The notes: generated by a model not told the origin, from the letters alone. DNA of 64,000 bases from Bacteroidales bacterium (GCA_038212325.1 JBBQUQ010000001.1:8339-72338), one strand, 5' to 3'. Positions 12,766 through 54,630 are shown, numbered from the stretch's first letter. Numbers and translations: made by a program.

Positions 12766-14550
12766 TCAATGCCACCCATAGCGGTAACTCAGTTGCAAAT
12801 CATCCATGTATAAGCTGGCTTGCCTCGGGTTGCGGATGAAAAGGTCGATCTGCAGGCTTGAATCGTTTACATCGGGAATGATGAAGGTTTTTCGCACCTC
12901 AAACCAGGTTCCCTGGCTTCCTTCCACCTTGTCGAGTGGCTGTTCGTCGCCGAAAAGGGTTTTGTTCCCCTTGGCAACGGAGTATCCAAGCGATGCGCCG
13001 GTTGGCTTGCCGCTGTTTTTTAACATCCACACTGCCACTTCGATGGTTTTCGGATATGGATAGCCGAACAGGTCGGTATTGATCGAATAGAGCGGGGTGA
13101 TCCCTCCTTTCTCATTGGCAGCAATGCTGTATTGCCCCGAATGGGTAAAAATGGCCGAAGGCTTCTTTACCGGTGACAGCGCAAGGTTTTCAAAATCATT
13201 TTTATACGAGCCCATCCTGTGCAGCGGTGAAACAACCCCGGAGCGTTCGAACGAGCGCCGGAAGTGGTCCCAATCCCAGGTTGAACCATAATAGCACCGC
13301 TCGAAACGGTAGAGGGCAACGGTATAGCGGATGTTGGAATAAGCCAGTAAAAAAAGAAGGAACAGCATGATGGTTTTCACCAGGAACAGCCGGTGGCCGA
13401 ACACCCAGGTTGCCAGCCACCCGAATGGCACAGCAATGATCGCGTAATACTCGATGAATGAACGCTGGCCATAGCTGCACCCGAAGTACCACATTTTCCA
13501 TGAGGCAAAAACCAGGGTGATCAGCAGGAAAACCGATGCAATTAGCCAGCCGTTTAACCTCCTTTGAAAAATCATCATCGCGATCCCGGCCAGGAAGAAC
13601 AGAACCAGCGGCGTGTAGGTGAGCAGCCCGTTCACCGGGGAAAAAAGCACTTCGGCCACCGCAGGATGGCCCAGGTTGGTGAATCCTTCATTACTATAAG
13701 AAAAATAGAGCCATTTTCCCGACAGGTATTTCCAGTAGATCATCTGCGGAAGAAAAATAAGGAACAGGATTGCAAGGAAGGCCAGGAGACGCGACGGTTT
13801 CAGGAATTGCCTGGTGCGTTTCAGCCATTCGGCAGGGCCGGCAGCATCCCAGGTAAAGAACAGCAGTCCCAGGACGATGCTGGTGGGCCTGACCAGGATG
13901 GCCAATGACAGGATCACGCTGATCAGCAAAAAGTACTTGTATGTTGGCGAAGCATGGTATCGCTTCAAGGCAAACAGAAAAAGAGCGAATAGAAAAAACG
14001 AATAAACATGCGACATCATGCCGTCGATGAGCGAATAGTAAAACAGGTTGGTCCCCAGGAATATCATGGTGACGACAAAAAAGCTGACAGCAGGCCGGAA
14101 ATAGTGGTCGAGGAATCTTTTCAGGAACCAGAGCCCCAGCAACAGGTATACAATGGCGGCAAGGCTCATCATCCGCATGTAGAGCATGGAAAAACCGCTT
14201 TCGCTGTTGAGGCCGGCTATGCGCGAAACCAGTTCGGAGGCGAAAAAGAACGGCGATGCCAGCAAGGCAACGCCATAGGTGTATTTTGTATCGAGCTTGT
14301 TTTTCAGGGTATCTGTGCTGAAACCTCCGCCCGTGCGGATGTCGAGGTCGGCCGGCATCTTATGTGTATCGAACCGGTAAAAAAAGGTGGCAGGAAGATA
14401 AATGTAATACCCTGCCCGGTCGGACCATAGTTCGCTGCGATCGGAAAACCGTGTTGCATCCTTGTGGAAATACCAGGAAAGCGCCAGTGAGACACAAAAC
14501 AGCACATAAAAAAACCACTGCTGCCCCAGACTATTTCGCCATTTTACCAT
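12766..14550 (-). CDS. GT-C fold membrane glycosyltransferase (GT39/GT83-like, PMT/ArnT-style) with a C-terminal beta-sandwich domain
   Basis: 594 aa with about 11-13 TM helices. The loop after TM1 carries WSDRAGYY (acidic residue plus aromatic, as in the loop-1 motif of PMT/ArnT). The C-terminal ~150 aa are soluble (THSGQYSIAAN...LYMDDLQLSY). The start codon lies inside the 8-mer repeat array. Confidence 0.7.
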   Translation of the reverse strand: MVKWRNSLGQQWFFYVLFCVSLALSWYFHKDATRFSDRSELWSDRAGYYIYLPATFFYRFDTHKMPADLDIRTGGGFSTDTLKNKLDTKYTYGVALLASPFFFASELVSRIAGLNSESGFSMLYMRMMSLAAIVYLLLGLWFLKRFLDHYFRPAVSFFVVTMIFLGTNLFYYSLIDGMMSHVYSFFLFALFLFALKRYHASPTYKYFLLISVILSLAILVRPTSIVLGLLFFTWDAAGPAEWLKRTRQFLKPSRLLAFLAILFLIFLPQMIYWKYLSGKWLYFSYSNEGFTNLGHPAVAEVLFSPVNGLLTYTPLVLFFLAGIAMMIFQRRLNGWLIASVFLLITLVFASWKMWYFGCSYGQRSFIEYYAIIAVPFGWLATWVFGHRLFLVKTIMLFLLFLLAYSNIRYTVALYRFERCYYGSTWDWDHFRRSFERSGVVSPLHRMGSYKNDFENLALSPVKKPSAIFTHSGQYSIAANEKGGITPLYSINTDLFGYPYPKTIEVAVWMLKNSGKPTGASLGYSVAKGNKTLFGDEQPLDKVEGSQGTWFEVRKTFIIPDVNDSSLQIDLFIRNPRQASLYMDDLQLSYRYGWH

Positions 14551-14564
14551 TTTACCATTTTATT
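14533..14564. repeat. 8-bp tandem array (4 units: atttcgcc attttacc attttacc attttatt), the complement of the AAATGGYG family
   Basis: Read directly from the sequence. It spans the stop codon of 14560-15138 and the start codon of 12766-14550 (MVKWRNS...). Confidence 0.85.
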
Positions 14565-15138
14565 TGAAGCGTCCCCCCCCTTCATAACGTGTTACCTCCA
14601 CACTGTCAACCAGCATCTCCCCCTTTCCCCGGTACCAGAAATAGGCCTGCAGCACATCCTCGCCATCAGGGGCCTGCGGTACGTGATAATCGTTGCTTAC
14701 CCGGTTCCATTGGTTTGGTTCCAGGTTTTCATGTTCCAGCGCAACAAACATATACTTGAAATTGACTCCCTGGTGGTTGCAGGTAGCCACGAGGCTGCAC
14801 TTTGCCTCCGACACCGGGCATGAGAACCATACCTTTCCGGTAACCCGGATCCACGAAGCGTCGGACGGATTGAGATCCTTGAATTTTATCCATAGTCCGG
14901 GAGAAAACGCAACAGCCGGGCCCATTTTCAGCGGTTCAAGATCATAAAAAGCCAGACGATTTCCTTTATCTTCAAGGTGTGCCGGCAGATGTTCCCGCTC
15001 CGCCAGCGCCAACGGATCAATGATTTGATGCGTATCCCGGTAGTCAAGGTAATGGTTCACACATATGAAAATCCCCACCAGTAAAACTGCAGAAAATCCT
15101 GCAAACAAATTTCCCCGGAACAGACCCTTTTCACTCAT
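14560..15138 (-). CDS. small membrane-anchored protein with a beta-sandwich (CBM-like) domain
   Basis: 192 aa. TM anchor LFAGFSAVLLVGIFICV. The C-terminal part (WIRVTGKVWF...QWNRVSNDY...LQAYFWYRG...LVDSVEVTRY) resembles domains in the 153-1934 and 12766-14550 products. Confidence 0.55.
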   Translation of the reverse strand: MSEKGLFRGNLFAGFSAVLLVGIFICVNHYLDYRDTHQIIDPLALAEREHLPAHLEDKGNRLAFYDLEPLKMGPAVAFSPGLWIKFKDLNPSDASWIRVTGKVWFSCPVSEAKCSLVATCNHQGVNFKYMFVALEHENLEPNQWNRVSNDYHVPQAPDGEDVLQAYFWYRGKGEMLVDSVEVTRYEGGGRFK

Positions 15139-15175
15139 AAAAACACACGTTATGGTAAATTCCTGCCCATCCGGA

Positions 15176-15246
15176 CCTGCATTGTATGCATTGCCTGCAT
15201 TACCTGCATTGCCTGCATTTTTGCATTACCTGCATTGCCTGCATTC
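15176..15246. repeat. 9-bp tandem array, 8 units (cctgcattg consensus)
   Basis: The units read cctgcattg tatgcattg cctgcatta cctgcattg cctgcattt ttgcatta cctgcattg cctgcattc. It is intergenic between 14560-15138 and 15251-15985. Confidence 0.9.
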
Positions 15247-15250
15247 CAAA

Positions 15251-15985
15251 CTATTTAAGGTATCTCCTGTCCCACACATTGTATTTCAGCAAGCACCATA
15301 TCGCCCGGAAAGCATCCTTCATCCCGATTTTTTTTCCCTCCTCATAGGTTCGTCCGTAGTATGAAATGCCAACTTCGTAAATCCTGATTTTAGGAAATCT
15401 GGTGATCTTCGAGGTGACCTCAGGTTCAAACCCAAACCGCCTCTCCCTGAAGTATATCTTTTTCAGGATTTCGGCGCGGAAAAGCTTGTAGCAGGTCTCC
15501 ATGTCGGTGAGATTCAGGTTCGTGAACATGTTGGATACAAACGTAAGGAACTTGTTGCCGATCGAGTGCCAGAAAAAGAGGATCCGGTGCGGCCTTCCCC
15601 CCATGAACCGTGAACCGTACACCACATCGGCAAAGCCGTCGAGGAGCGGTTTCAGCAAAATATTGTATTCGGCAGGATCGTATTCAAGATCGGCATCCTG
15701 GATGATGATAAAATCGCCGGTTGCCTCCTCGATGCCGCGATGCAGGGCAGCTCCTTTGCCCAGGTTCACCGGCTGGTTGAACAGCCTGATGTCGCTGGCC
15801 GGGTGCGCGGCAATATACCGTTCCACCACGCCGATGGTTTCGTCGCGGCTGAAATCATTGACAATGATGATCTCTTTCGTCACCGCTTCCAACAATTCAA
15901 CGGCAAGAACTTTATCGAGAATAAGGTGGATGGTTGCCGCCTCGTTGTAAGCGGGAATTAAGATGCTGAGCTTTCGGGATTCCAT
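15251..15985 (-). CDS. family 2 glycosyltransferase, polyprenyl-phosphate sugar synthase type (Ppm1/DPM1/GtrB/ArnC-like)
   Basis: 244 aa and soluble. Motifs: [26 protein letters not shown] (DxD). Confidence 0.85.
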
Positions 15986-16002
15986 ATAACCGGTTCAAAG
16001 GG

Positions 16003-16010
16003 CAAAAATA
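16003..16010 (-). promoter_or_regulatory. candidate -7 box (TATTTTTG on the minus strand)
   Basis: Matches TAnnTTTG, 18 nt upstream of the ATG at 15985. Confidence 0.35.
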
Positions 16011-16032
16011 AGAGAAAATATCAAGGAATATG

Positions 16033-19646: not shown

Positions 19647-19663
19647 ATGTTACAATTGGGGTG

Positions 19664-19671
19664 CAAATATA
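19664..19671 (-). promoter_or_regulatory. candidate -7 box (TATATTTG on the minus strand)
   Basis: Matches TAnnTTTG, 18 nt upstream of the pdxA ATG. Confidence 0.35.
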
Positions 19672-19679
19672 TTTAAAAA

Positions 19680-19711
19680 AAATGGCGAAATGGTCAAATG
19701 GCGAAATGGCG
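19680..19711. repeat. 8-bp tandem array, 4 units (aaatggcg aaatggtc aaatggcg aaatggcg)
   Basis: Read directly. It overlaps the last codons and the stop of pepA (...FRHFAI*). Confidence 0.85.
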
Positions 19712-21166
19712 AAAAACAAAATCAAACAACAACCTCACCCCGAACCCGGTGCCGCCCTGCCCGCGGTAGGAATCGTGTTTTTCAAGGAATGCCGGCCCGG
19801 CAATGTCGAGATGGATATAGGGATAGTCTGTGAATTTCTCCAGGAATTTGCCGGCGGTGATCATCCCGGCTTCCGGGGGCCCCAGGTTTTTCAGGTCGGC
19901 CAGCTCCGATTTGATCTGCTCGCCATATTCGCTCCACATGGGGAATTCTGCCAGACGTTCATAGACATCGCATCCTGAAATTTTTAATTTTTCGATTTCC
20001 GCTGTGGCATTCACCTGCATGGCCACAGCCCCGAACTTTCCAATGGCGCGCACGGCTGCACCGGTGAGCGTAGCCAGGTCGATTACCAGCGCCGGGTCAT
20101 ACTTTTTTGCATAGCTCAGGGCATCTGCCAGGATCAGCCTTCCTTCGGCGTCGGTATTCAGTACCTCCACGGTCATGCCATTGTGCATGGTGATGATATC
20201 GCCCGAAACCAGGGCTTTCACCCCCGGGCGGTTATCGGTTGCCGGCATGAGGCCCACCACGTGAACCGGCAGCTTCGCCATCGCGATGGCGTAAACTGCG
20301 CAGGCAACTGCAGCAGCCCCCGACATGTCGTCTTTCATGTTCAGCATCGAATCGCCCGGTTTGAGATTCATCCCGCCCGTATCGTACACAACCCCCTTGC
20401 CTACGAATACAACCGGTTTTTTGTTTTTCGCATTGGCAGGTTTCCATTCCATCACGGTAAAAGTGGGCGGCTCATGGCTGCCCTGGTTTACGCCAAGCAA
20501 TCCGCCCATCTTAAGCGCTGCAATCTTCTGCTTGTTCAGAACCTCGGCATCTGCACCCGATTCCCTGGCCATCTGTTCCACCTCCCTGGCGAAGATGGCT
20601 GCTGTAAGATGTGAATTGGGTTCGTTGATGAGATCGCGGCAGCGGGCGACGGCGTGGAGAAGAATGTTAAGCCGCGTGACGCGTGACGCGTGACGCGCGA
20701 CAGGTTTTAAGCCGGCATCCTCTTCCAGTGCTTTGGAGTAGATTTCGATCTCCGAAAGGGTATTTAAGTTATCCTTCTCGCTTTTATGTTTCAGGAACTG
20801 GTACGACCCAAGTGCAAGGCCTTCGGTGAATGCAATTACTTCATCTCCCATCCCTTCTGCATCAAACACAGCAACACGGCTGGCTTTCTGCGCGTTGAGA
20901 AATCCGGCGACCTTATCTCCTGCCTTACGCGAAGCCTCCAGCCGTTTCGACCCCTCTTTTTCGTCCCTTACATAATAGACATATACCCAGTAGGTTAACC
21001 GGTTAAACCCTGTCAAATCCTGTTTTAGGGTCTCGACCTGCTGCTTAAGGTAGTTCTTTTCTGCCGCATTGAGAATGCCTGCCGGCAATTTTGAGAGCTT
21101 TGACACAATTACAGCCAGGTGGCCGAGTTCCTGCTCTTTATGGGTGAGGGTGATGGATGGGATCAT
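19694..21166 (-). CDS. pepA: leucyl aminopeptidase (M17)
   Basis: Motifs NTDAEGRLILAD and VGKGVVYDTGG. The track start at 21211 is a TTG overlapping two -7 boxes. The ATG at 21166 (MIPSITLTHKE) is preferred. Confidence 0.85.
   Translation of the reverse strand: MIPSITLTHKEQELGHLAVIVSKLSKLPAGILNAAEKNYLKQQVETLKQDLTGFNRLTYWVYVYYVRDEKEGSKRLEASRKAGDKVAGFLNAQKASRVAVFDAEGMGDEVIAFTEGLALGSYQFLKHKSEKDNLNTLSEIEIYSKALEEDAGLKPVARHASRVTRLNILLHAVARCRDLINEPNSHLTAAIFAREVEQMARESGADAEVLNKQKIAALKMGGLLGVNQGSHEPPTFTVMEWKPANAKNKKPVVFVGKGVVYDTGGMNLKPGDSMLNMKDDMSGAAAVACAVYAIAMAKLPVHVVGLMPATDNRPGVKALVSGDIITMHNGMTVEVLNTDAEGRLILADALSYAKKYDPALVIDLATLTGAAVRAIGKFGAVAMQVNATAEIEKLKISGCDVYERLAEFPMWSEYGEQIKSELADLKNLGPPEAGMITAGKFLEKFTDYPYIHLDIAGPAFLEKHDSYRGQGGTGFGVRLLFDFVFRHFAI
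20674..20701. repeat. 7-bp tandem array (gcgtgac x3 plus gcgcgac) inside the pepA coding region
   Basis: Read directly. It translates on the minus strand to VARHASRVTR. Confidence 0.85.
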
Positions 21167-21199
21167 GTTTTTAAGTACTTTTGAAGCGGATTTGAAATA

Positions 21200-21216: not shown

Positions 21217-21272
21217 CCCGTGGGCGATTTGTTTAAGTTCAAATCCAAAATGCAACATGCAAAAATGAAATA

Positions 21273-22352
21273 ATGACGACAGCAAACCTTATATATAAAT
21301 CACTACAATCTGAATTCCTGACCATCGAAGAGGGCAAATTCCTTTACGAAACCCTTCCGCTGGCCGACTTGATGCTGATAGGCAATGAACTGCGAAAAAA
21401 ACTACATCCTGAAGGCACAGTTTCCTGGATCATCGACCGCAATGTAAACATCACCAATGTCTGCATCTCCGGGTGCAAATTCTGTAATTTCTACCGCACC
21501 TCAGGCAGCAGAGATGCTTACATCACCTCAATTCCTGAATACTGCAACAAGATCGAGGAGATGAAGCGGTTGGGAGGCAGTCAGTTACTGCTCCAGGGCG
21601 GGTTGCATCCCAAATTGAGCCTCGATTTTTACGAAAATCTGTTTGCCGACCTCAAAAGCAGGTATCCCGAGGTGCGGCTGCATGCCCTTGGGCCCCCTGA
21701 AATTGCATGGCTGGCGAAAAAGGAGAACCTCTCATTTAAAACTGTCCTGGAACGGCTTGTCGCCGCAGGTCTCGACAGTTTGCCAGGGGCCGGAGCGGAA
21801 ATACTGGCCAACAGGGTGCGAAAAGTACTATCCCCGGCCAAATGTTCGAAGCAGTCATGGCTCGACGTAATGCGGGCAGCCCATGAACTGAACCTGACCA
21901 CCTCGGCAACCATGATGTTCGGGCATATCGAAACCATCGAAGAGCGGTTTGAACACCTGTGCGCGCTTCGTGAACTTCAATCGCAGAAACCTGATGGAAA
22001 CAAGGGTTTCCTGTCGTTCATCCCCTGGCCTTTCCAGGATGACAGGACCGTGCTGAAGGAAAAATCAGGGGTCGTTAACAAGGTTACGCCCGAAGAATAT
22101 ATCCGCATGATCGCCATCAGCCGGATTATGCTGCCCAACATCCCGAACATCCAGGCTTCGTGGCTCACGGTTGGGAAAGATACTGCCCAGCTGTGCCTCC
22201 ATGCCGGCGCCAATGATTTTGGCAGCATCATGATCGAGGAAAATGTTGTGAGTGTTGCCGGCGCCAACCACAAATTTGACGCGGCAGGCATCCAGAAGGC
22301 TATCAGGGATGCAGGATTCGAGCCACGGCTGAGGGACCAGGACTTTAACTGA
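21273..22352 (+). CDS. radical SAM enzyme of the MqnC/MqnE/CofH family (futalosine-pathway menaquinone biosynthesis type)
   Basis: 359 aa. It has the CX3CX2C cluster CISGCKFC within IDRNVNITNVCISGCKFCNFYR, and the overall layout is typical of MqnC/MqnE/CofH. I cannot separate the subfamilies by eye. Confidence 0.75.
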   Translation: MTTANLIYKSLQSEFLTIEEGKFLYETLPLADLMLIGNELRKKLHPEGTVSWIIDRNVNITNVCISGCKFCNFYRTSGSRDAYITSIPEYCNKIEEMKRLGGSQLLLQGGLHPKLSLDFYENLFADLKSRYPEVRLHALGPPEIAWLAKKENLSFKTVLERLVAAGLDSLPGAGAEILANRVRKVLSPAKCSKQSWLDVMRAAHELNLTTSATMMFGHIETIEERFEHLCALRELQSQKPDGNKGFLSFIPWPFQDDRTVLKEKSGVVNKVTPEEYIRMIAISRIMLPNIPNIQASWLTVGKDTAQLCLHAGANDFGSIMIEENVVSVAGANHKFDAAGIQKAIRDAGFEPRLRDQDFN

Positions 22353-32117: not shown

Positions 32118-33980
32118 TTAATATTTCTTAATGATTTTAGCGTTAGATGACCTGTCTCCCATCGTCACATGAATAAAATAAATTCCGGGTTGCATGTTAT
32201 TGATGGAAAATTCTTTTGACTTATTACCTGTCATGTCCTCTTCAATGACCTTTGCTCCAAGCATGCTGTAAATCTGCACCACCGGGCGAGATAATTGTTC
32301 TGAGGCTAACAATTCGAGCGTAAATTTTCCTTCTGTGGGGTTGGGATAAACTCTGAAGAGGTTCGACTTATCGCCTATAATCGGTTTATTCTCATTTACA
32401 GTGGTAGTCAACATCGAAAGAGGTTGCATCCCGCAGGGGGATTCGCTGATATATCCATGTAAGTAACCTCCGCTCAGAACAGTGGTTCCCGGCATATAGT
32501 GGATCTCTTGTCCCGCAATCATACTAACATTACCACCAGGCTGTACGATAAAGTAGGTTCCATTTCCCGCCACGGTAATGGTTTGCATGGCATTATACAC
32601 TCTGGTATCTGCAACAATGATATTGGTCAGGTAAAGATTGGCAGGAACCACAGGATTGGTACTATTGACAGTTATTGCAACGGTAGTCAATGCCCCGGTA
32701 GTTGTAAGCGCTCTGCCGTCAAGTATAACTCCGGTATTCAGCCCCAGAGCACCGTTGTTACAAATTATTGTTCCGCAGAAAACTGAATAATTATTTATGC
32801 TCACTGCACCTTCAATTTTCCAAAACACATTTCTTGCCATCGCTCCGTTTGTCAAAATGACTTTTGAATAGGTACTTGTTGAAAGTGCACCGTTTATCTT
32901 GATAACAAATACTGCATCGGGGTTACCTTGCGCATCGAGGTAAAGACTATCTGTTAATACTGTAGCAGCATCAAGGAGATACGTATGCGGAGTCAGATTC
33001 AGGTTGTTTCCAAACTGTGCAGGATATAACAGGTTGATATCATAAGGCAGGAGATTGAGATAATTATATACATTGAGTAAATCGGCTGCGCAGGTTGCTG
33101 TGGAGATATCCGGAATGGGATGTATGGTACCGGTTACGAGTAAAGGATCAAAGCCTGTGGTTAAACCTACATTCGTTCCAATATCCCCAACAACATGCGT
33201 GATGCCGCTGTTTGAAACAGCTCCGTCAGCAGAAAATAATGCATAGCATGCTGTTGAAGCAAGGGCAGGAGCATCGGGTCCGGTGAGCACAGGACTTCCG
33301 CAACCGACCGGGGTAAATGCCTTCACTCCGTGAACAGTAACTGCTCCTGCAATAGAAAGGGCTCTTCCATTAAGTCTGCTGCCTGAGAATATTTCTATTG
33401 CAGCATTGTGGGCGATGATAGTTCCCTTCATCTTGGTACCAGCGGCCAGACTCACTAAACCTTCTACTTTCCAGTATACATTACATGCTTGCGCACCATT
33501 AAGCAAAAGTATCCGGGAAGAGGGGCCGGAGGAGAATGCACCCTGGATTTGGAAAATAAATACAGCATTTGCATTTCCCTGCCCGTCTAAATATAGGTCC
33601 AGGTTCAGCGATGCAGCCGCGGAAATTGAATAAACACCTTCGTTAAGTGTGTCGCCATTACCTAAAAGAGGCGCAGGAAAGAACATAGGTGTTGTCCCAT
33701 TCAGCAGGTTATATGCAGTGAGCAAATCAGCGGAAGCTGATGCACTCACGCCATCACCATCGTGCATCTGCCCGTTCACATTGCCAAACCCGGTGCTGGA
33801 ACCTGAGTTTGTGCCTACATTTCCTGTGATGTGCGAAATTCCGGTGTTGGTTACAGCTCCCGCAGAAGAGAAAAGCACAAAACTGCCCACAGTGCCCAAA
33901 TTGGGAGCCTGGGCAAAATTCATAATCGGGAATAATAACAAAGTACCGGATGTCAAAATATACAGAATTTTTGCTTTCAT
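32118..33980 (-). CDS. T9SS-secreted protein with two tandem ice-binding-like (DUF3494) beta-helix domains
   Basis: 620 aa with a signal peptide. The DUF3494-type openings LGTVGSFVLFSSAGAVTNTGISHITGNVGTNSGSSTGF and ACYALFSADGAVSNSGITHVVGDIGTNVGLTTGF each precede ...NGRALS/DGRALT. T9SS tail: RVYPNPTEGKFTLEL...GIYFIHV. Confidence 0.8.
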   Translation of the reverse strand: MKAKILYILTSGTLLLFPIMNFAQAPNLGTVGSFVLFSSAGAVTNTGISHITGNVGTNSGSSTGFGNVNGQMHDGDGVSASASADLLTAYNLLNGTTPMFFPAPLLGNGDTLNEGVYSISAAASLNLDLYLDGQGNANAVFIFQIQGAFSSGPSSRILLLNGAQACNVYWKVEGLVSLAAGTKMKGTIIAHNAAIEIFSGSRLNGRALSIAGAVTVHGVKAFTPVGCGSPVLTGPDAPALASTACYALFSADGAVSNSGITHVVGDIGTNVGLTTGFDPLLVTGTIHPIPDISTATCAADLLNVYNYLNLLPYDINLLYPAQFGNNLNLTPHTYLLDAATVLTDSLYLDAQGNPDAVFVIKINGALSTSTYSKVILTNGAMARNVFWKIEGAVSINNYSVFCGTIICNNGALGLNTGVILDGRALTTTGALTTVAITVNSTNPVVPANLYLTNIIVADTRVYNAMQTITVAGNGTYFIVQPGGNVSMIAGQEIHYMPGTTVLSGGYLHGYISESPCGMQPLSMLTTTVNENKPIIGDKSNLFRVYPNPTEGKFTLELLASEQLSRPVVQIYSMLGAKVIEEDMTGNKSKEFSINNMQPGIYFIHVTMGDRSSNAKIIKKY

Positions 33981-34470
33981 GTGGTTTGTTTTTAAGATTA
34001 AACTTATTAATGATTTACTCCTTCTTTTTTGTATTTTTTGACGTTATATTCCTACGTATTCATTGTAATTAAGTCCTATTTTTCATTAAAAGACATTCGA
34101 CTCTAAACTGAAGGCCATCTTCGACAACAAATGCCGGTTTACTTATAGTGTTTATGTACTGACTGACTGTTGCAAAAATTACAATTCAAAGATGATTATG
34201 TTTTAACGGAAAAGTGTTATATAATCTTGGAAATTTATTACATAATTCTCACATTTTCTGTCGTGTAGCGTTTTTCAACCTTGAGACAGCCATCCATCTG
34301 GTATTCCCATGCGTCCGCATCGAGTGGCAAACCGTGACTGAAAATGGAGGGCTGCCCTGAACCCCGCCTGAAATAAATTTGGGTATTGTCTTTCGTGATA
34401 AATCACCTGAATAGAATGGTCATCAAAGGCGAATAACTATAACCCTGTGTTTGCCGTTGTATGTGCCAAA

Positions 34471-34506
34471 AGAAAAAACCACTTACAAAAAACGTTGTAA
34501 GTGGTT
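34471..34506 (-). terminator. rho-independent terminator downstream of the tRNA
   Basis: A 12-bp perfect stem (34477-34488 pairs with 34495-34506, aaccacttacaa/ttgtaagtggtt) is followed on the minus strand by TTTTTTCT. Confidence 0.7.
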
Positions 34507-34516
34507 GATTTTGCTG

Positions 34517-34590
34517 TGGGCCCAACAGGACTTGAACCTGTGGCCAGCTGATTATGAGTCAGCTGCTCTAACCGTCTGAGCTATGGGCCC
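34517..34590 (-). tRNA. tRNA with CAT anticodon (elongator type: tRNA-Met or lysidine-dependent tRNA-Ile2)
   Basis: The 74-nt minus-strand sequence is GGGCCCATAGCTCAGACGGTTAGAGCAGCTGACTCATAATCAGCTGGCCACAGGTTCAAGTCCTGTTGGGCCCA. It folds as a cloverleaf with a 7-bp acceptor stem, anticodon loop CTCATAA and T-loop GGTTCAAGTCC. CCA is not encoded. It lacks the initiator features (1:72 mismatch, GGG/CCC anticodon stem). Confidence 0.9.
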
Positions 34591-34595
34591 GTCTC

Positions 34596-34631
34596 GAATG
34601 ACGAAAATGCGAATGACGAATATGCGAATTG
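34596..34631. repeat. 15-bp tandem repeat, 2.4 units (gaatgacgaaWatgc)
   Basis: It reads gaatgacgaaaatgc gaatgacgaatatgc gaattg and begins 5 nt upstream of the tRNA 5' end. Confidence 0.85.
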
Positions 34632-34757
34632 AGGGGTGCAAAGATAGAAAAATATTACAATTTCTGCAAACAGGTATCTATGGCGCCCGAAAGCGATATT
34701 TTTGACTATGCGCATAGCCTATCTGTAAAAAACCTTGACAATCATGAAAAAAAACTG

Positions 34758-34765
34758 TACCTTTG
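34758..34765 (+). promoter_or_regulatory. candidate -7 box TACCTTTG
   Basis: Matches TAnnTTTG, 26 nt upstream of the queA ATG. Confidence 0.35.
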
Positions 34766-34791
34766 CCGCCCTTTGAAACAGGCAGAAAATC

Positions 34792-35841: not shown

Positions 35842-35842
35842 C

Positions 35843-36004
35843 AAATGTAAAATGGTAAAATGGTAAAATGGTAAAATAGTGCTTAGTTTACCATTTTACC
35901 ATTTTGCCATTTTGCCATTTTGCCATTTTGCCATTTTACCATTTTGCCATTTTACCATTTTTGATTTGCTTTTCCGAATTTTACCATTTTTAATTTCACC
36001 ATTT
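35843..36004. repeat. composite 8-bp tandem array: ~4.7 units aaaatggt (35843-35880), then 9 inverted units [ag]ccatttt (35890-35961) and a degenerate tail to 36004
   Basis: Read directly. It fills the whole queA-ispD intergenic space, and the ispD TTG start lies in the degenerate tail. Confidence 0.9.
35849..35913 (+). terminator. long hairpin formed by the inverted 8-mer arrays (putative queA terminator)
   Basis: 35849-35875 pairs with 35887-35913, giving 27 contiguous pairs with one G-U and an 11-nt loop. It starts 8 nt after the queA stop and is followed by T-rich repeat units. Confidence 0.5.
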
Positions 36005-45183: not shown

Positions 45184-45193
45184 TATATTTATC

Positions 45194-47680
45194 ATGAACG
45201 GAAATATCAGTAACGCGCCCCAGCAACAGCAAACAGTTGATTACAAAATCATTCTGTTCAAATTTTACCGTTTCTGGTATTTTTTCGCTCTGACCATTTT
45301 TATCGCACTCATTGTCGCGTTCATCTTCAATAAATACACCAAGTCCGTTTATGAGGTGAAAACCACCGTGCTGATCAAAGACAAGTCGGAAAATAAATTA
45401 AACCCGCAGGATCTTCTGGGCATGGGACTGTTCAACAACATGCAGAACCTGCAGAATGAAATCGGCATTTTAACCTCCTATACGCTTACCTACCGCACCG
45501 TCACCAAGATCGGGTTCGAGGTCTCGTACTACGTGGAGGATAATTTTGTGACCAGGGAGTTATATCACGACAGCCCCTTCAAGGTTATCATGGACACCTC
45601 CGTTCCCCAACCTGTAAACATGTTCTTCAATATCAAGTTCCTGTCGGGGAGCAAATTCAGGTTGGAAACGAGCGATGAGGCGATCAGGTTTTACAACTTT
45701 TCAACCAGGAAAATGGTTGATGGCAGGAAAGATAATGTAGTGGCCGATCAAATATACACGATCGGGCAGGAGGTGCAGTCCAAGCATTTTAAATTCCGCG
45801 TGGTTCTGAATGAAATACCACATGAGGAGCAGGATATGACGAAATCATATTCGTTCATGTTCAAGAATTACGACGCCCTGGTCACGGAGTTCAAATTGTT
45901 CAACATCGAGCCTATCAATAAGGAGGCTTCGATCGTTGAGATTAAACTTAAAGGCGGAAATGTCGACAAACTGGTCGACTTCCTGAATAACCTTACCAAG
46001 GAGTATCTTGCAAAGGGGCTGGAGAAGAAGAACATTGTAGCTTCACGAACGATTGCTTTCATCGACAATGAGTTGCGGGGAATTACCGATTCGCTGAATG
46101 CTTCAGAAAAAGCGCTTATGCTCTTCAGAACCAACAAGGAAATCATGAACCTGAACGATGAAGCAAAGCAGGTTTTTGAAAAAATGATGCAGCTTCAGGA
46201 TGAAAAAGCAATTCTGATGGTAAAAACAAGATACCTTCAGAATATGAAAGAGTACATTGAAAAAAATCAGAAATTCGACGAACTCATCGTGCCTGCATCA
46301 ATGGGTATCGAAAACACGGTTTTAAACGACCTTACCATGCAGTTAACCACGCTCTACATGAAGCGTACGGAGACCTCGCAGTTTTCGAAATCAAAGAATC
46401 CGAGCCTTATGGCGATTGACCTGCAGATTGCAACCACAAAAAACGCCCTGTATGAAAATGTAAAGAGTGCGATCAATTCCAACACCATCGCCTTGCAGGA
46501 GGTGAACAGCAGGGTGGCGGCGATCAACAGCCGAATCAGCAATCTTCCTGAAACCCAGCGTGTGCTATTTGGAATTGAACGGAAATTCAAACTCACCGAC
46601 GCAATATACACCTACCTTCTGCAGAAGCGCTCTGAAGCCCAGATCTCACAGGCTGCCAATCTTTCGGACAATGAGGTTGTTGACGAAGCTTCATCCATCG
46701 GGCTGACGCCGGTATTCCCCAAAAAGTCCCTGAATTATATCATTGCACTGATCCTGGGGATCCTTGTTCCCATCCTCTACATCCTCGGAAAAGACTATTT
46801 CAATGATAAGATCATGGAGCGGGAGGATGTTGAAAAACTCACAAAACTCCCTATCGTCGGCCATGTCATACACAGCGACAAACCCAGCACAGTGGTTGTG
46901 ATCGATTCCCCGAAATCGACCATTGCCGAGTCGTTCCGGTCGGTCAGAACCAACATAAATTACCTGGTTCAGGGTAAAGAAAAACAAACGATCCTGATCA
47001 CAGCCGACATGGTCAGCGCCGGCAAGACCTATGTTTCCATCAACCTTGCCCTGATTTTTGCCTTATATGGCAAAAAAACACTTCTGATGGGATTTGACCT
47101 GCGAAAGCCAAAAATATTCGAGGACTTCGGGCTGACGAATGCAGCAGGAATCAGTTCCTTCATGATCGGTAAAAGCAAGCTGGAGGAGATCATTCAGTTT
47201 TCGGGCATCGAAAATCTTGACATCATCGCGTCCGGCCCTGTACCGCCGAACCCTGCCGAATTAATTGCCTCGCTGAAGTGTACTGAAATGTTTGCCCGCC
47301 TGAAGGAGATTTACGATTACATCATCATCGACACCCCGCCCGTCGGACTTGTCACTGATGCGTTTCTCCTGATGAAGCATGTTGATGCTACGCTGTTCCT
47401 GGTTCGCCAGGGTTTTACACATAAAAAGATATTCGGATCCATTATTCACGACATGGAAACACGCAACATTTCAAACCTGGCAATTTTAATCAATGATGTT
47501 AAGCTGAACCGGAGTTCATATGGCTACGGGTATGGCTACGGCTATGGCTATGGGTACGGTTACGGATATGGTTACGGATCGGGATACGGTTATGGCTATG
47601 GTTATGGTTACTACTCAGATGACAAAGAAAAAGCAAAAAAAAGCAAGACATTTCTTCAGCGTTTATTTTCCAAATCTTAG
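45194..47680 (+). CDS. wzc: polysaccharide co-polymerase / BY-kinase (Wzc/GumC-like tyrosine autokinase) with a (YG)n C-terminal tail
   Basis: 828 aa. It has an N-terminal Wzz-like TM pair with a coiled-coil periplasmic domain. Kinase motifs: Walker A MVSAGKT, A' LLMGFDLRKP, B IIIDTPPV. The C-terminal Tyr cluster is YGYGYG... Confidence 0.8.
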   Translation: MNGNISNAPQQQQTVDYKIILFKFYRFWYFFALTIFIALIVAFIFNKYTKSVYEVKTTVLIKDKSENKLNPQDLLGMGLFNNMQNLQNEIGILTSYTLTYRTVTKIGFEVSYYVEDNFVTRELYHDSPFKVIMDTSVPQPVNMFFNIKFLSGSKFRLETSDEAIRFYNFSTRKMVDGRKDNVVADQIYTIGQEVQSKHFKFRVVLNEIPHEEQDMTKSYSFMFKNYDALVTEFKLFNIEPINKEASIVEIKLKGGNVDKLVDFLNNLTKEYLAKGLEKKNIVASRTIAFIDNELRGITDSLNASEKALMLFRTNKEIMNLNDEAKQVFEKMMQLQDEKAILMVKTRYLQNMKEYIEKNQKFDELIVPASMGIENTVLNDLTMQLTTLYMKRTETSQFSKSKNPSLMAIDLQIATTKNALYENVKSAINSNTIALQEVNSRVAAINSRISNLPETQRVLFGIERKFKLTDAIYTYLLQKRSEAQISQAANLSDNEVVDEASSIGLTPVFPKKSLNYIIALILGILVPILYILGKDYFNDKIMEREDVEKLTKLPIVGHVIHSDKPSTVVVIDSPKSTIAESFRSVRTNINYLVQGKEKQTILITADMVSAGKTYVSINLALIFALYGKKTLLMGFDLRKPKIFEDFGLTNAAGISSFMIGKSKLEEIIQFSGIENLDIIASGPVPPNPAELIASLKCTEMFARLKEIYDYIIIDTPPVGLVTDAFLLMKHVDATLFLVRQGFTHKKIFGSIIHDMETRNISNLAILINDVKLNRSSYGYGYGYGYGYGYGYGYGYGSGYGYGYGYGYYSDDKEKAKKSKTFLQRLFSKS

Positions 47681-47693
47681 GAGGTAAAAGGGA

Positions 47694-49879: not shown

Positions 49880-49988
49880 TGTCACGGTTGCGCCCGATAA
49901 ACCGCTTTTCTGCTGGCTATCTGCAATAAATGCCGAAAAAATCAGTTATTTGTAATGTTCCATCGTTTATTTCAGAAAACCATTATCC

Positions 49989-52304
49989 ATGAAGCCTTTA
50001 CGCTATATTTTCGCATGCTTGCTCATCTTTTCAGGATTTCAGGGAGTCTTTGCCCAGCAGGTCCCCATCGGCCAGTGGCGCGATGAACTCCCGTATACCC
50101 TTGTCAACTCCCTGACTGAGGCAGGCACCCGTATTTATGCCTCCACGCCCTACGCCGTTTTCTATTTTGACAAGGAAGATAACACCGTAGTGCGCATCAC
50201 AAAGATTTCGGGGTTATCAGACATCGGCATCAGCTGCATCAGTTATAACAATGAGTATAAAACCCTTGTGATCGCTTACAGCAATGCCAATATCGACCTG
50301 ATCAAGGACAACACTGTCATCAATTTATCAGACATCAAGCGCAAGCCCATTCTTGGGAATAAAACCATAAACGACATCTTTTTTATCGGGAAAGATGCCT
50401 ATCTCTCCTGCGGATTCGGCATCGTCGTGCTTGACATCGACAAGGAGGAGATTCGCGACACCTATTATATCGGACAGGAAGGCAGCCAGGTGAATGTGCT
50501 CGCCATGACGAAAGATGACCACGACACACTTTTTGCTGCCACGGAAAAGGGGATCTACAAGGCCTGGTACCTCGATCCGAACCTTGCAAATTTCGCATCA
50601 TGGCACAAGGATCTTCAAATAGATTCAACCGCGACCTATAATACGATCACTTTGTTTTCAGGCAAGGTCTTCGTGAATAAACAGGTTGCTTCGGTTACAG
50701 CGGATACGATATATACGCATGCAAACGGAGCCTGGAGCCGGTGGAACCCGAATGCCGGCAATGAAGTGATGCATCTTGCATCAAATGATAAATACCTGGT
50801 TATTGCCAATAAATATAATATTAAGACATTCAATGCCGGGTTGAATTTTTTCACCAATGTTCCCGGCTCACCTTATCCGCAGGTCGCCATTCCCGATAAA
50901 GACGGGTTATTCTGGGCGGGAGACACTTACCTGGGATTATCGAGTTATAATCCAAACGATAATACGGTAAACCGCATCAACCTGAGCGGCCCGTCGACCG
51001 CATTGGCCTTCAGCATGGCATGCAGGGCCAACGACCTTTACATTGCACCCGGAGGCAGAGATGGCACGTTTGCACCTATCTATACCAAGCCTGAGGTTTA
51101 CCACTTCAACGATTCCGACTGGAAGAACATGGCTGAATTCAATAATCCCATGATGATCCAGACGCATGACATTGTATGCATCGCCATCGATCCGGATGAC
51201 AGCAAACATGTTTTTGCCGGAACGTATGGTTCGGGATTGCTCGAAATATACAATGATTCGGTTATCAAGAGATTCACAAACAGCAACAGCACCCTCGGCA
51301 ATTACTCAGGTTCCGACCCGTCCGATATTCGCGTTGGAGGAGTTGCATACGACCCCGAAGGCAATTTATGGGTGGCTTGCTCACATACCAACCAGTCCTT
51401 CTCTATGTATAAGAGCGGGACATGGACCCCGTTCACAATTCCGGTGGAGATCGACATGGGGCAGATGATGATTACCCACACCGGACAGAAGTGGGTTCAA
51501 TTGCGCTACGGCACGATGAATTCCAATTCGGTGATGGTCTTTACCGACAACGGCACTCCCGGGAATTCTGCCGATGACCAGTACCGGCTCTTAAATTCAA
51601 CAGAGGGAAATGGCAACATCCCCGGAACGACTGTTTTTGCCATGGCTGAAGATCATAACGGCGAGGTATGGGTCGGGACCGAAAAAGGCGTTGGCGTGTT
51701 CTATTCGACGGAGAATATTTTTACCGGCCAGAATTTCGATGCACAGCAAATCCTCGTAACACAGGGGAGCCACGTTCAATACCTGCTCGAAAACGAAACA
51801 GTTACGGCAATTGCTGTCGACGGAGCCAACCAGAAATGGATCGGCACCGACCGCGGCGGCGTTTTCCTGTTCTCACCCGACGGAACAAAAGAAATTTATC
51901 ACTTTACTGCCGAAAACAGTCCGTTGCTCTCCAACCGCATAACCTGCATTGCCCTGAGCCAGAATGGGGAGGTTTATTATGGAACCGACCAGGGAGTTGT
52001 CTCCTTCAGGGCTTCTGCCACACCCGGAGGCGATAGCAACGAAAATGTATATGCCTTTCCAAACCCGGTAAAGGAGGATTATGAAGGAACCATCGCGGTA
52101 AAAGGGCTGGTTAACAATGCAGCAGTCAGAATTACCGATGTTGCAGGAAACCTGGTCTATTCCACGCAGGCCGAAGGCGGCCAGGCGGTTTGGAATGGAA
52201 AAAATTTCGCCGGAAAAAAGGCCCGCACCGGGGTCTACCTGGTATATGCCGCCAATGATGACGGAAGTGAGAAAATTGTCACGAAAATTCTCATCATCAA
52301 CTGA
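49989..52304 (+). CDS. porZ: double beta-propeller (two-component-regulator-propeller repeats) protein with a T9SS C-terminal domain; PorZ-like
   Basis: 771 aa with a signal peptide. It has repeated W.GT..G..F blades (EVWVGTEKGVGVF, KWIGTDRGGVFLF, VYYGTDQGVVSF). C-terminal domain: AFPNPVKEDYEGTIAVKGL...ITDVAGNLVY...GGQAVWNGKN...TGVYLVYAA...KILIIN. The size and architecture match PorZ. The PorZ assignment is from memory of the family, not from a search. Confidence 0.55.
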   Translation: MKPLRYIFACLLIFSGFQGVFAQQVPIGQWRDELPYTLVNSLTEAGTRIYASTPYAVFYFDKEDNTVVRITKISGLSDIGISCISYNNEYKTLVIAYSNANIDLIKDNTVINLSDIKRKPILGNKTINDIFFIGKDAYLSCGFGIVVLDIDKEEIRDTYYIGQEGSQVNVLAMTKDDHDTLFAATEKGIYKAWYLDPNLANFASWHKDLQIDSTATYNTITLFSGKVFVNKQVASVTADTIYTHANGAWSRWNPNAGNEVMHLASNDKYLVIANKYNIKTFNAGLNFFTNVPGSPYPQVAIPDKDGLFWAGDTYLGLSSYNPNDNTVNRINLSGPSTALAFSMACRANDLYIAPGGRDGTFAPIYTKPEVYHFNDSDWKNMAEFNNPMMIQTHDIVCIAIDPDDSKHVFAGTYGSGLLEIYNDSVIKRFTNSNSTLGNYSGSDPSDIRVGGVAYDPEGNLWVACSHTNQSFSMYKSGTWTPFTIPVEIDMGQMMITHTGQKWVQLRYGTMNSNSVMVFTDNGTPGNSADDQYRLLNSTEGNGNIPGTTVFAMAEDHNGEVWVGTEKGVGVFYSTENIFTGQNFDAQQILVTQGSHVQYLLENETVTAIAVDGANQKWIGTDRGGVFLFSPDGTKEIYHFTAENSPLLSNRITCIALSQNGEVYYGTDQGVVSFRASATPGGDSNENVYAFPNPVKEDYEGTIAVKGLVNNAAVRITDVAGNLVYSTQAEGGQAVWNGKNFAGKKARTGVYLVYAANDDGSEKIVTKILIIN

Positions 52305-53062
52305 TGCTTTATTCAACAAAGGGCATTGTTTTTCATTCTATCAAATATTCAGAGACCAGTGTAATCGTTAAAATTTACACCGGGATGTTCGGAATTCAAT
52401 CCTACCTTTTCAAAGGCATCCGCGTTTCAAAATCAAAAATCAAGCCCGGGCTTTTTCAATCCATGACTCTGCTTGACCTGGTGGTGTATCATCGGGAAAA
52501 ACATTCGCTGCAATCGGTGAAGGAGGTGCGTATTGCCCATCCGTTTAAAACCATCCCGTTCGATATCCGGAAAAGTTCTGTGGTTCTGTTTATCAATGAG
52601 TTGGCTTATAAGGCCATCCGTGAAGAAGAGCCCAACCCCGACCTTTTTGAATTTCTCTGGCAAACATGTCTCGACCTGGACGGAACGGAAGAAAGCGTGT
52701 CAGGTTTCCACATCCGCTTTGCGCTTGAGCTGATGCATCACCTTGGCATCTTCCCGCAAAACAACTATTCATCGGCATTTCCGGTGTTCAACCTGCGCGA
52801 AGGGCTTTTCCAGGCCTCCATCCCGGTCCATCCGAATTATCTCGACCAGGAGTACAGCCGGATGATGTCGGGGGTGCTCGAAAAATGCCAGGTGGAGGCA
52901 AACCAAAATGGTGAAATTGTGAAATGGCGGAATGGTGAAATGTTCCAGGATGCAGGAGCAAGGAACAAGCTGCTTGAAATCATTCTTCTTTATTATCAGC
53001 TGCATCTTCCCGGGTTCAGGGAAGTACAGTCGCATCATATCCTCCATGAAGTTTTGGCCTAA
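52304..53062 (+). CDS. recO: DNA repair protein RecO
   Basis: 252 aa. The OB-fold N-terminus is [22 protein letters not shown]. Its start overlaps the upstream stop (TGATG). Confidence 0.85.
52906..52945. repeat. 8-bp tandem array, 5 units (aaatggtg aaattgtg aaatggcg gaatggtg aaatgttc) inside recO
   Basis: Read directly. It is translated in frame as [13 protein letters not shown]. Confidence 0.8.
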
Positions 53063-53067
53063 ATCTG

Positions 53068-53075
53068 TATCTTTG
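53068..53075 (+). promoter_or_regulatory. candidate -7 box TATCTTTG
   Basis: Matches TAnnTTTG, 16 nt upstream of the lysS ATG. Confidence 0.35.
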
Positions 53076-53091
53076 CCGAAAATTTGGCAAT

Positions 53092-54627
53092 ATGACGACA
53101 GGATTAACCGAACAGGAAACCATACGCAGAAATTCACTGAATGAGCTTACCAGGCTTGGCATCGACCCGTATCCCCCGGAAACGTTTGAGGTCAATGTAA
53201 AATCGTCTGATATAAAAAATAATTTCCCCGCCGACCACACCCTTTTCCAGCAGGCAAGCATCGCCGGGCGCATCATGAGCAGGCGCATCATGGGGGCTGC
53301 ATCCTTTGTGGAGCTCCAGGATGAAAGCGGCCGCATCCAGCTGTATATGAAGCGGGATGACATATGCCCGGGAGAAGATAAAACACTGTACAACACCGTA
53401 TTCAAAAAATTGCTCGATATCGGCGACATCATTGGTGTGACAGGCTTTGTCTTCATCACCCAGATGGGAGAAATCACCATCCATGTCCAGTCGCTGAAGC
53501 TGCTCTGCAAATCCCTCCGGCCGCTGCCCATCGTGAAGGAAAAGGAGGACGAGGTTTTTGATGCATTCACCGATCCGGAACAACGGTATCGCCAGCGCTA
53601 TGTCGACATGATCGTAAACCCTGAGGTGCGCGAGGTATTTGTAAAACGAAATATCCTGTTAAATTCGATGCGCAATTACCTGAATGCCAAATCGTACCTT
53701 GAAGTTGAGACCCCGATTTTGCAACCCCTTTACGGAGGCGCGGCCGCCAGACCATTTAAAACCTTCCACAACACGCTGGATATGACGCTCTATCTCCGCA
53801 TTGCGAATGAGCTTTACCTGAAAAGGCTGATCGTAGGCGGATATGACGGCGTTTATGAATTTTCAAAGGATTTTCGCAACGAGGGGATGGACCGTTTTCA
53901 CAATCCCGAATTCACCCAGATGGAGTTGTATGTTGCCTATAAAGACTATGAGTGGATGATGGATCTCGTGGAGGAGATGGTGGAAAAGATCGCCATGGAC
54001 CTGCACGGGAAAACACAGGTACAGGTGGGCGAAAACATGGTCGATTTCAAACGGCCATGGAAACGGTTTAGCATGTTCGAAGCTATCCAACATTTTACCG
54101 GGATCAGCATTGACGGAAAATCGGAGGAGGAACTCGGCGAAATCGCCAAAGAGCTGGATGTGCCCATCGATCGCACCATGGCCAAGGGAAAGATCATCGA
54201 CCAGATATTTGGTGAAAAATGCGAACCGTTCCTCATCCAGCCGACGTTCATCACCGATTACCCGGTGGAGATGTCGCCGCTTGCCAAGAAGCATCGCAGC
54301 AAACCCGGTTTGGTTGAACGGTTTGAAGCCATTTGCAATGGGAAAGAGCTCTGCAACTCCTTCTCCGAGTTAAACGATCCCATCGACCAGCGCGAGCGGT
54401 TTGCATCGCAGCTTGAACTGGGAAAACGCGGCGACGATGAGTCGATGGTGCTCGACGAAGATTTTCTGCGGGCGCTTGAATTCGGCATGCCGCCCACCGC
54501 CGGGCTCGGTATCGGCATTGACCGTTTGACCATGATCATGACCAATTCCCAATCCATCCAGGATGTGCTTTTCTTCCCGCAGATGCGGCCGGAGAAGAGG
54601 CCAAATAGTGAAATGGCGAAATGGTGA
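53092..54627 (+). CDS. lysS: lysine--tRNA ligase (class II)
   Basis: 511 aa. Motifs: [21 protein letters not shown]. The last residues, NSEMAKW, come from the 8-mer array. Confidence 0.92.
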
Positions 54628-54630
54628 AAT
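54603..54630. repeat. 8-bp tandem array, 3.5 units (aaatagtg aaatggcg aaatggtg aaat)
   Basis: Read directly. It contains the lysS stop and abuts the stop of the convergent 54630-56666 gene. Confidence 0.85.

Follow-up and report, generated by a model that had tools for sequence, protein, structure and literature searches.

Octamer arrays at the borders of genes in a Bacteroidales bacterium and their likeness to inverted arrays bracketing PF05635 genes

Introduction

A stretch of 64,000 nucleotides from a Bacteroidales bacterium (GCA_038212325.1, JBBQUQ010000001.1:8339-72338), referred to as the window and with positions counted from its first letter, contains five tandem arrays of an 8-bp unit with an AAATGG core. 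Here, the arrays are compared with orthologous loci and with a group of 7- and 8-bp arrays that adjoin small genes of the PF05635 family. Repeats of a similar kind are the short tandemly repeated repetitive (STRR) heptamers of cyanobacteria and the long simple sequence repeats (LSSR) of prokaryotes. Mazel et al. in 1990 (STRR) and Mrazek et al. in 2007 (LSSR) reportedly described such repeats as head-to-tail units of 5-11 bp that are dispersed, mostly intergenic, lineage-specific and of unknown function. Bacteria have been known since about 1990 to carry dispersed heptamer and octamer arrays, for which, to our knowledge, no origin or function has been accepted.

Five octamer arrays lie in the window

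A preliminary description of the window had assigned octamer arrays to five places, and all five were present, with borders differing by 0-4 nt. Array 1 (14531-14564, minus strand) has about four units, reading AAATGGTA AAATGGTA AAATGGCG AAATAGTC on the minus strand, and fills the 9-bp gap between the stop codon of a gene for a 192-aa protein (14560-15138, minus) and the ATG (14550) of a gene for a 594-aa protein. Array 2 (19680-19714, plus; 4.4 units, AAATGGCG/TC) occupies the last codons of pepA, encoding an M17 PepA, whose sense (minus) strand here reads CGCCATTT..; the start of pdxA follows 33 bp downstream. Array 3 is composite. Its left arm (35843-35881, plus; AAATGGTA repeated 4.5 times) begins 1 nt past the stop codon of queA, and its right arm (35891-35962, minus), separated by a 9-nt loop, consists of 9.4 TRCCATTT units forming an inverted copy of the left arm. 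A degenerate tail (35963-36002, minus) with two more irregularly spaced ..ACCATTT.. units abuts the native TTG start of ispD (36003). Array 4 (52906-52945, plus) consists of five degenerate units (79% matches) in frame inside recO, within a hypervariable linker, and array 5 (54599-54630, plus; about four units) lies at the convergent junction of lysS and a PAD_porph gene linked to the type IX secretion system (T9SS). Four of the arrays thus abut or overlap gene ends and one is in frame in recO, as had been described, and the reported mixing of unit variants within arrays was also seen (GGCG, GGTG, GGTA, GGCA and GGTC).

The unit in the window can be written AAATGGYR, with the AAATGG core followed by a variable YR or YN tail. 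Tandem Repeats Finder assigned a period of 8 to all five arrays, with 3-9.4 copies and 75-100% matches. When one mismatch is allowed, AAATGGNRAAATGG is present at 22 places in the window compared with 0.66 occurrences expected by chance, as determined from dinucleotide-preserving shuffles, in which the maximum was 2. The genes adjoining the five arrays have no functional theme in common, according to the listing of open reading frames (ORFs) and their Pfam matches.

Arrays 1, 2, 4 and 5 have a single orientation, and array 3 alone is an inverted pair, with the G-rich arm first. As RNA, the arms of array 3 are predicted to pair into an approximately 40-bp hairpin (-47.4 kcal/mol, z = -7.6; none of 200 shuffles was equally stable). 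The proposal that the arrays are terminators or insulators was not supported, as no hairpin is possible in the four single-orientation arrays and a scan for promoters and terminators returned nothing at array 3, neither a promoter nor a terminator-like site, and no canonical terminator after the hairpin. The short G+C-rich hairpin with T-run of an intrinsic terminator is accordingly not what is found at array 3. Other known elements were considered and set aside. The 8-bp units are contiguous and have no spacers, unlike the 23-50 bp repeats and unique spacers of a CRISPR array. Bacteroidetes promoter and sigma-54 motifs, Chi, DNA-uptake sequences and G-quadruplexes, compared by eye, did not fit in spacing or composition, and none of them occurs as tandem arrays. 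Stop codons in all frames do not represent a common property either, since the GGCG unit contains no stop on either strand.

Comparison with orthologous loci

Insertions were called by comparison with orthologous loci of relatives in which gene order is conserved. The 3' end of lysS lacks an array in two relatives (L198, ending ..FPQMRQEK*, and L196, ending ..PEKRNG*), and in the window array 5 adds about eight codons and a stop, giving the tail PNSEMAKW*; the reported derivation of the LysS end NSEMAKW* from the array was therefore borne out. Between queA and ispD, relatives whose QueA is 93% identical carry, in 11 contigs, a TAA stop, a 16-nt spacer and TTGAAAAAGTCGGC; the window carries TGA, a 161-bp array block (35842-36002) and then the identical TTGAAAAAGTCGGC. 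It follows from this arrangement that array 3 is an insertion and the TTG start of ispD native, and the earlier claim that the array provides this start was wrong, as the TTG and the following AAAAAGTCGGC are unchanged in relatives without the array. At the 3' end of pepA, the relative L213 reads GATTTT^TTAAATACC (GATTTT^TTAAATA) with no array, and the window has an insert of about 41 bp between two ATTTT microhomologies. Here, the variant unit GACC provides the TGA stop, resulting in the PepA tail FRHFAI* that had been attributed to the array; a PepA homolog with 75% identity ends in the identical tail and another in a decayed one. The spacer corresponding to array 1 in the relative L214 contains a different array, four copies of CACTAAGG, and the product of the 594-aa gene begins with LKRLRITDWFFY.. 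in L214 and with MVKWRNSLGQQWFFY.. in the window. Since both the array and the N-terminus differ, array 1 probably supplies the ATG of the 594-aa gene, which makes the proposed array-derived start MVKWRNS plausible. Judged by these comparisons, the four arrays at the lysS 3' end, between queA and ispD, at the pepA 3' end and at the start of the 594-aa gene are lineage-specific insertions. A view of arrays 1 and 2 as ends of a 5-kb composite element was rejected, since the genes they enclose are syntenic in relatives without the arrays.

Array 4 differs in age. In the RecO linker (aa ~196-216 of the window protein), which precedes a conserved helix, orthologs with 65-77% identity carry NGE[MI][AV]KWRNGE or decayed forms of it, and other orthologs carry at the same spot different repeat-derived peptides (RDVACNVS.., GAQNFEPLQ.., PSPKGEGG.., RIPNPESRIP..) or nothing, the length of the RecO homologs (P0001-P0120) ranging from 231 to 317 aa. 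Array 4 is therefore an old insertion that keeps the reading frame, and its site is a hot spot for small repeats.

Relatives also possess arrays where the window has none. The ruvC/arginase junction has no spacer in the window; in the relatives with 93% QueA identity (L200-L204, ~5360-5520) it holds (GACCAAT)4-5 followed by (TGCCTAT)8-16, and sample-to-sample differences in the copy numbers of these heptamer arrays amount to 1-8 units. TTGGTCA, which we take to be the unit of the cyanobacterial STRR2, is a rotated form of the complement of GACCAAT. Sister lineages thus acquire arrays that differ in unit and in the boundary they occupy, and that afterwards vary by slippage.

It had been considered that the arrays might be artefacts of assembly or sequencing. 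Short-read contigs do often break at arrays, e.g., in L115 and in many matches at contig ends. However, the same array sequences recur across assemblies and samples that are independent of one another: L198 and L199 are identical, the recO array is found in dozens of independent homologs, and an independent Logan assembly of the same sample as the window, SRR19962012, reaches the first units of array 3 before breaking there, which is at odds with an artefact of one assembler. The chance that the arrays are artefacts is therefore practically negligible.

Slippage-prone contingency loci, in which gain or loss of 8 bp would switch the reading frame of flanking genes by phase variation, had also been proposed. 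The period is indeed not a multiple of 3, and the sister-lineage heptamer arrays show that copy numbers can change between samples. However, the tracts in the window lie in spacers or in the last codons of housekeeping genes such as pepA and lysS, where a change of frame would affect a few terminal residues, and the sole internal tract, in recO, is old, degenerate (79% matches) and in frame across species. No surface-antigen or restriction-modification genes are involved, and we consider a role in phase variation very improbable.

Relation to described repeat families

The octamer had been thought not to belong to a described repeat class. This holds for the octamer itself, which was not found in the literature (searches with the array strings returned unrelated eukaryotic papers only); it does not hold for the kind of repeat, for which TAACTGA heptamers, the paired octanucleotides of Geobacter and STRR are known examples. 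The arrays are an octamer member of the known dispersed short tandem-repeat families: the unit falls within 5-11 bp and is arranged head to tail, the same unit occupies five sites in 64 kb, and four of the five arrays are not deep in ORFs. As in STRR and LSSR, one lineage-specific unit occupies many mostly intergenic sites. STRR in the strict sense are heptamers of cyanobacterial hosts, whereas the unit described here has 8 bp and a Bacteroidales host. The T9SS sorting domains encoded in the window, and close homologs that NCBI assigns to Bacteroidales, place the host in Bacteroidota.

TAACTGA heptamers occur in Beggiatoaceae, Cyanobacteria and some Bacteroidetes, mostly in forward orientation just upstream of start codons, and a role in translational regulation was proposed for them (MacGregor 2015, PMC4679880, where Mrazek et al. 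2007 is also cited). They resemble the window arrays in being intergenic and often touching start or stop codons, in their patchy distribution across phyla with long arrays in some Bacteroidetes, in breaking contigs, and in being missing from the orthologous spacers of relatives. They differ in unit and period, and the window arrays are mostly located at 3' ends and occur in both orientations. In Geobacter metallireducens, three to five tandem units of 7-9 bp (GTTGCTYN, TCTCCGTS[Y], MTYCTGA) were termed 'global regulator binding sites' and interpreted as sites for proteins of the IHF/HU type; they occur as opposite-strand pairs at variable distance, are intergenic even within operons and are absent from the sister species (Aklujkar 2009, PMC2700814). 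Such short, paired and lineage-restricted intergenic arrays resemble those described here, whereas the host is a Deltaproteobacterium, the units are different and the elements noted in or close to the pairs are the insertion sequence (IS) elements IS110/IS481 instead of PF05635 genes.

Both precedents bear on the question of whether the arrays are DNA or RNA binding sites by which a host global regulator or nucleoid protein tunes neighbouring genes. The presence of one unit at many gene boundaries and the position of array 1 at a start codon would fit such a role. The precedents themselves (PMC2700814, PMC4679880) offer hypotheses only, the TAACTGA and Geobacter regulator-site interpretations having been made without evidence. 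In addition, the arrays are absent at orthologous sites of close relatives with conserved synteny, sister lineages have unrelated units, both orientations and mostly 3' ends are used, and the neighbouring genes share no functional theme, all of which render host regulation improbable.

AAATGG arrays in other genomes

A scan of 185,579 species genomes for three AAATGGYN units yielded at least 114 loci. Among the matches listed, most belonged to Bacteroidota (Bacteroidales, Chitinophagales, Hymenobacter, Flavobacteriales), and the others to bacteria of the Planctomycetes-Verrucomicrobia-Chlamydiae (PVC) group (Phycisphaerales, Verrucomicrobiota, Kiritimatiellia) and a few other groups; several metagenome-assembled genomes (MAGs) had from 5 to at least 10 array loci each. 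The eighth base is specific to the genome (TG, TT/CT, TC/CC, TA/CA or CG), and the Y at position 7 alternates within arrays. In the window and the 114 foreign loci listed, 130 of 145 arrays do not lie deep within an ORF, as judged from crude ORF calls. Pairs of inverted arrays in which the G-rich arm comes first, as in array 3 of the window, were found in L016, L102, L107, L112 and L050 (empty), and the opposite order occurred once (L026).

Another repeat accompanies the arrays in the Bacteroidales MAG Kiruna_bin-10044 (L005, 4680-4930), where tandem repeats of about 49 bp (CTGCGGAACTGCTTCGCCTTTCCCCTGCACCCTTCAG..) lie between two AAATGGTG arrays.

Arrays of 7 or 8 bp flank PF05635 genes

Two array loci with inverted arrays about 465 bp apart, each enclosing a small ORF, provided the lead to PF05635 (23S_rRNA_IVP), a family of small proteins that are as yet unexplained and belong to the most common of that sort in Bacteroidota and Cyanobacteria. 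Among the matches listed, a PF05635/TIGR02436 'four helix bundle protein' gene directly adjoins the arrays at 6 of 114 loci, the hosts being Bacteroidota and Cloacimonas and including the isolate Hymenobacter gummosus KCTC 52166, the source of the array loci L016 and L045. PF05635 was the only specific small family that recurred among the 210 array-adjacent ORFs of the listed loci, and no transposase family recurred among these ORFs. At four loci (L091, L029, L088, L016) the order is (AAATGGYN)n, gene, (NRCCATTT)n, i.e., the gene lies between a G-rich array upstream and its complement downstream. L091, from another Bacteroidales MAG, uses GGCG/GGTG units as the window does. At L072 and L080 related degenerate 8-mers occur on one side of the gene. 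Among known structures, relatives of the six proteins are the pentameric XCC0516 (2gsc) and 2rld.

In a reciprocal test, 80 metagenomic PF05635 genes were retrieved with an alignment of five array-associated proteins, and their 200-bp flanks were searched with Tandem Repeats Finder. Of 79 upstream flanks, 43 had arrays of at least three copies, and so did 40 of 71 downstream flanks, compared with any array in 22 of 372 random windows taken from these loci. Almost all of the 83 flank arrays had a period of 7 (65 arrays) or 8 (14 arrays; 79/83 together). Such arrays were found in 7 of 74 (9.5%) other intergenic windows of the same loci, in comparison with about 55% of PF05635 flanks carrying arrays. 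At least one side of the gene carried a 7/8-bp array in 47 of 70 loci, and both sides did in 26 of 70.

The unit differs between loci and is related across the gene: in 19 of 26 loci the upstream unit matches the reverse-complemented downstream unit (up to one mismatch), compared with 20 of 474 control pairings. Complementarity was judged by this comparison of units and not by duplex energy; 15 of 74 RNA duplex energies between PF05635 flanks fell below the 5th percentile of the control, a noisy one in which unrelated G-rich and C-rich arrays also pair. The arrays are also polar with respect to the gene, 64 of 79 being richer in G than in C in the upstream-sense orientation and three the reverse. 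Finally, the unit follows the protein. Units were shared by 7 of 13 pairs of loci whose proteins are at least 70% identical, and by 16 of 296 (5%) and 26 of 1067 (2%) pairs in the classes of lower identity; one clade of PF05635 proteins is exclusively accompanied by 8-mers with an AGGCA core. The arrays are thus associated with PF05635 genes, symmetrically inverted around them and polar, and their unit co-varies with the protein.

The measured link between 7/8-bp arrays and PF05635 genes is what is new here. It is probably novel, as no paper linking STRR or heptamer arrays to PF05635, S23 or four-helix-bundle proteins was found in a search whose coverage left out subscription literature. PF05635 genes have been noted as odd insertions, e.g., between cas genes (PMC3936711).

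ORF-less arrays with the unit of the local cassette were found in nearby intergenic regions at three loci (L116, L126, L162). Units of the TGCCTAT type, as seen at the ruvC/arginase junction of the sister lineage, also flank PF05635 genes, e.g., at L172.

The family name refers to 23S rRNA intervening sequences (IVS; PMC3936711, with reference to Ralph & McClelland 1993). Both settings have in common a small four-helix-bundle ORF between inverted repeats that are able to pair into a long stem; in IVS, the paired terminal repeats form a stem that is excised by RNase III. They differ in that the cassettes described here lie between protein-coding genes and have arms of tandem 7-8-bp arrays, and in that the window copies contain no ORF. 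The window arrays themselves do not represent a 23S rRNA IVS, as they lie between protein-coding genes and a search of the whole window against Rfam returned tRNA-Met only and no rRNA.

Likewise, repetitive extragenic palindromic elements, bacterial interspersed mosaic elements and REP-associated tyrosine transposases (REP/BIME-RAYT) as well as miniature inverted-repeat transposable elements (MITEs) resemble the arrays in that non-coding copies greatly outnumber gene-bearing ones, are intergenic, form hairpin pairs and can be absorbed into coding ends. The arrays differ in lacking a palindromic REP unit as well as terminal inverted repeats with target-site duplication, and the protein tied to them, a small helical bundle, is not known to catalyse any reaction. 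Both assignments were rejected: the junctions are spacer replacements or ATTTT microhomologies, and no transposase recurs beside the arrays, although no search aimed at RAYT was made.

A candidate origin of the window arrays

Confidence is high in the descriptive part of this work, namely that the arrays are real, inserted, intergenic and elsewhere part of a cassette-type architecture. Of the possibilities raised in the preliminary description, a remnant or derivative of a small mobile element is best supported, by the four insertions absent in relatives, the other units in sister lineages and the PF05635 brackets. The explanation we favour, by a little better than an even chance, is that the window arrays are ORF-less copies of a lineage-specific STRR/LSSR-type family whose gene-bearing form appears as the inverted brackets of a PF05635 cassette; that the window copies derive from, or spread with, such cassettes is held with moderate confidence. 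The gene-bearing form, with a period of 7 or 8, would consist of two inverted arms around a PF05635/TIGR02436 gene, with the G-rich unit upstream on the sense strand and its complement downstream. Array 3 would then correspond to an 'empty' inverted pair, i.e., the cassette arrangement minus the gene, and arrays 1, 2, 4 and 5 to single-arm copies.

Arrays would be gained by insertion into tiny intergenic spacers or extreme gene ends, and in one case into a permissive protein linker, these being the sites where selection tolerates them, and would subsequently change in length by slippage and decay by point mutation. Effects on the host would be by-products: new stop and start codons, short protein tails, the RecO linker peptide and a strong RNA or DNA hairpin in the queA-ispD unit. 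The paired arms might act as a long RNA stem, similar to the RNase III-processed stems of 23S rRNA IVS, and/or be bound by the four-helix-bundle protein, and confidence in any specific molecular function of the arrays is low. Since the unit and the PF05635 protein co-vary, the data suggest that the protein recognises its own repeat unit; this covariation also keeps the protein-binding option discussed above alive. As a wider version, offered with reservation as a real possibility, PF05635 cassettes with inverted 7-8-nt brackets could constitute a widespread unrecognised selfish class in which the protein recognises its own unit as DNA or RNA stem and ORF-less arrays are non-autonomous progeny.

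A number of points weigh against a descent of the window arrays from PF05635 cassettes. The 64-kb window contains no PF05635 gene or recognisable pseudogene (hidden Markov model built from 85 sequences, best E = 2.4), and among the matches listed the gene accompanies AAATGG arrays at only about 5% of the loci. Causation may therefore run either way, from cassette to orphan arrays or from existing arrays that are used as landing pads. Neither a transposase nor a target-site duplication was found at the arrays, nor any further sign of mobility, and we know of no catalytic activity of PF05635 proteins. All seed proteins of the alignment used in the reciprocal retrieval came from array-associated loci, and the genes at the foreign loci were crude longest-ORF calls. 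The Geobacter pairs hold IS110/IS481 elements, and PF05635 genes are not mentioned there (PMC2700814). Finally, AAATGG arrays of 3-19 units occur at 27 loci in putative viral contigs (IMG/VR, L217-L243, including giant-virus MAGs), compared with 30, at least 120 and 108 loci for permuted control octamers. As three-unit octamer arrays are common in general, the presence of AAATGG arrays across phyla need not mean a single origin and may in part reflect independent ones. The ideas of phages as vectors and of an exceptional octamer were not supported, as control octamers are equally or more frequent in viral contigs and none of the 285 viral array loci listed has a PF05635 gene nearby.

The same data bear on the opposite order of events, in which the arrays came first, as simple-sequence elements that propagate themselves. 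Template switching or slippage would seed them at A/T-rich microhomologies and recombination would spread them, while PF05635 genes would be mere passengers with a preference for landing, or being kept, in array pairs, much like IS elements; the window arrays would then have no debt to cassettes. The roughly 95% of listed AAATGG loci without the gene fit this reading, as do the ATTTT microhomology and the lack of a target-site duplication at array 2, the abundance of arbitrary octamer arrays in viral contigs with no PF05635 gene nearby, and the presence of IS110/IS481 at a fixed distance in paired octamer sites of G. metallireducens; by analogy with the latter, array pairs may be general landing pads. 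However, the unit co-varies with the clade of the PF05635 protein, and the polarity to the gene is strict, with 64 of 79 arrays G-rich upstream. A passive landing pad predicts neither, unless each clade targets its own unit, which in turn amounts to a specific protein-repeat relation. We therefore consider primary arrays with passenger genes rather unlikely.

The link between arrays and PF05635 genes joins two unknowns, the dispersed heptamer/octamer arrays and the PF05635 proteins, into one testable system, and the selfish-cassette version, if true, would account for where STRR, heptamer and octamer families come from in Cyanobacteria, Bacteroidota, PVC bacteria and further groups. For annotation, it matters that arrays change start codons, stop codons and the tails of proteins, as in PepA, LysS, RecO and the 594-aa envelope-type protein, and that they break short-read assemblies and may confuse repeat finders.

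Other repeats and features of the window

Further repeats were observed in the window. A second array family, about eight copies of the 9-mer CCTGCATTR (15176-15245), occupies the spacer between a GT2 gene (15251-15985, minus) and the gene for the 192-aa protein (14560-15138, minus); the orthologous spacer in L214 has 31 bp only. A short heptamer array, (AAATGCA) x3.4, lies at 21241-21264 in the divergent spacer between pepA and a gene at 21273. The tRNA-Met (CAT) gene (34516-34590, minus) is adjoined, up to position 34629, by 2.3 copies of the 15-mer CGAATGACGAAAATG, which resembles alternating 7- and 8-nt units of the GAA(A)ATG type, within an 800-bp region (33981-34791) without long ORF. 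Immediately before this region, 32118-33980 encodes a protein of 620 aa in which two Ice_binding-like domains are combined with a C-terminal T9SS sorting domain. The G+C content of the 30-36 kb region is 0.42-0.44 compared with about 0.50 in the rest of the window. An 828-aa protein (45194-47680) has a coding Gly-Tyr repeat near its C-terminus (47518-47611; YGYGYG.., period 6/12/18), which is unrelated to the octamer family. At 63173-63301, REP-like palindromes (GGGAGGGGGCTGACCCCACCCCC... / CCCCTCCCC...GGGAGGGG) precede an array with a 10-bp unit, (AAAATCTGYG) x4, and a 148-aa ORF begins shortly after it at 63307; this type of palindrome matches the PSPKGEGG peptides inserted in RecO homologs.

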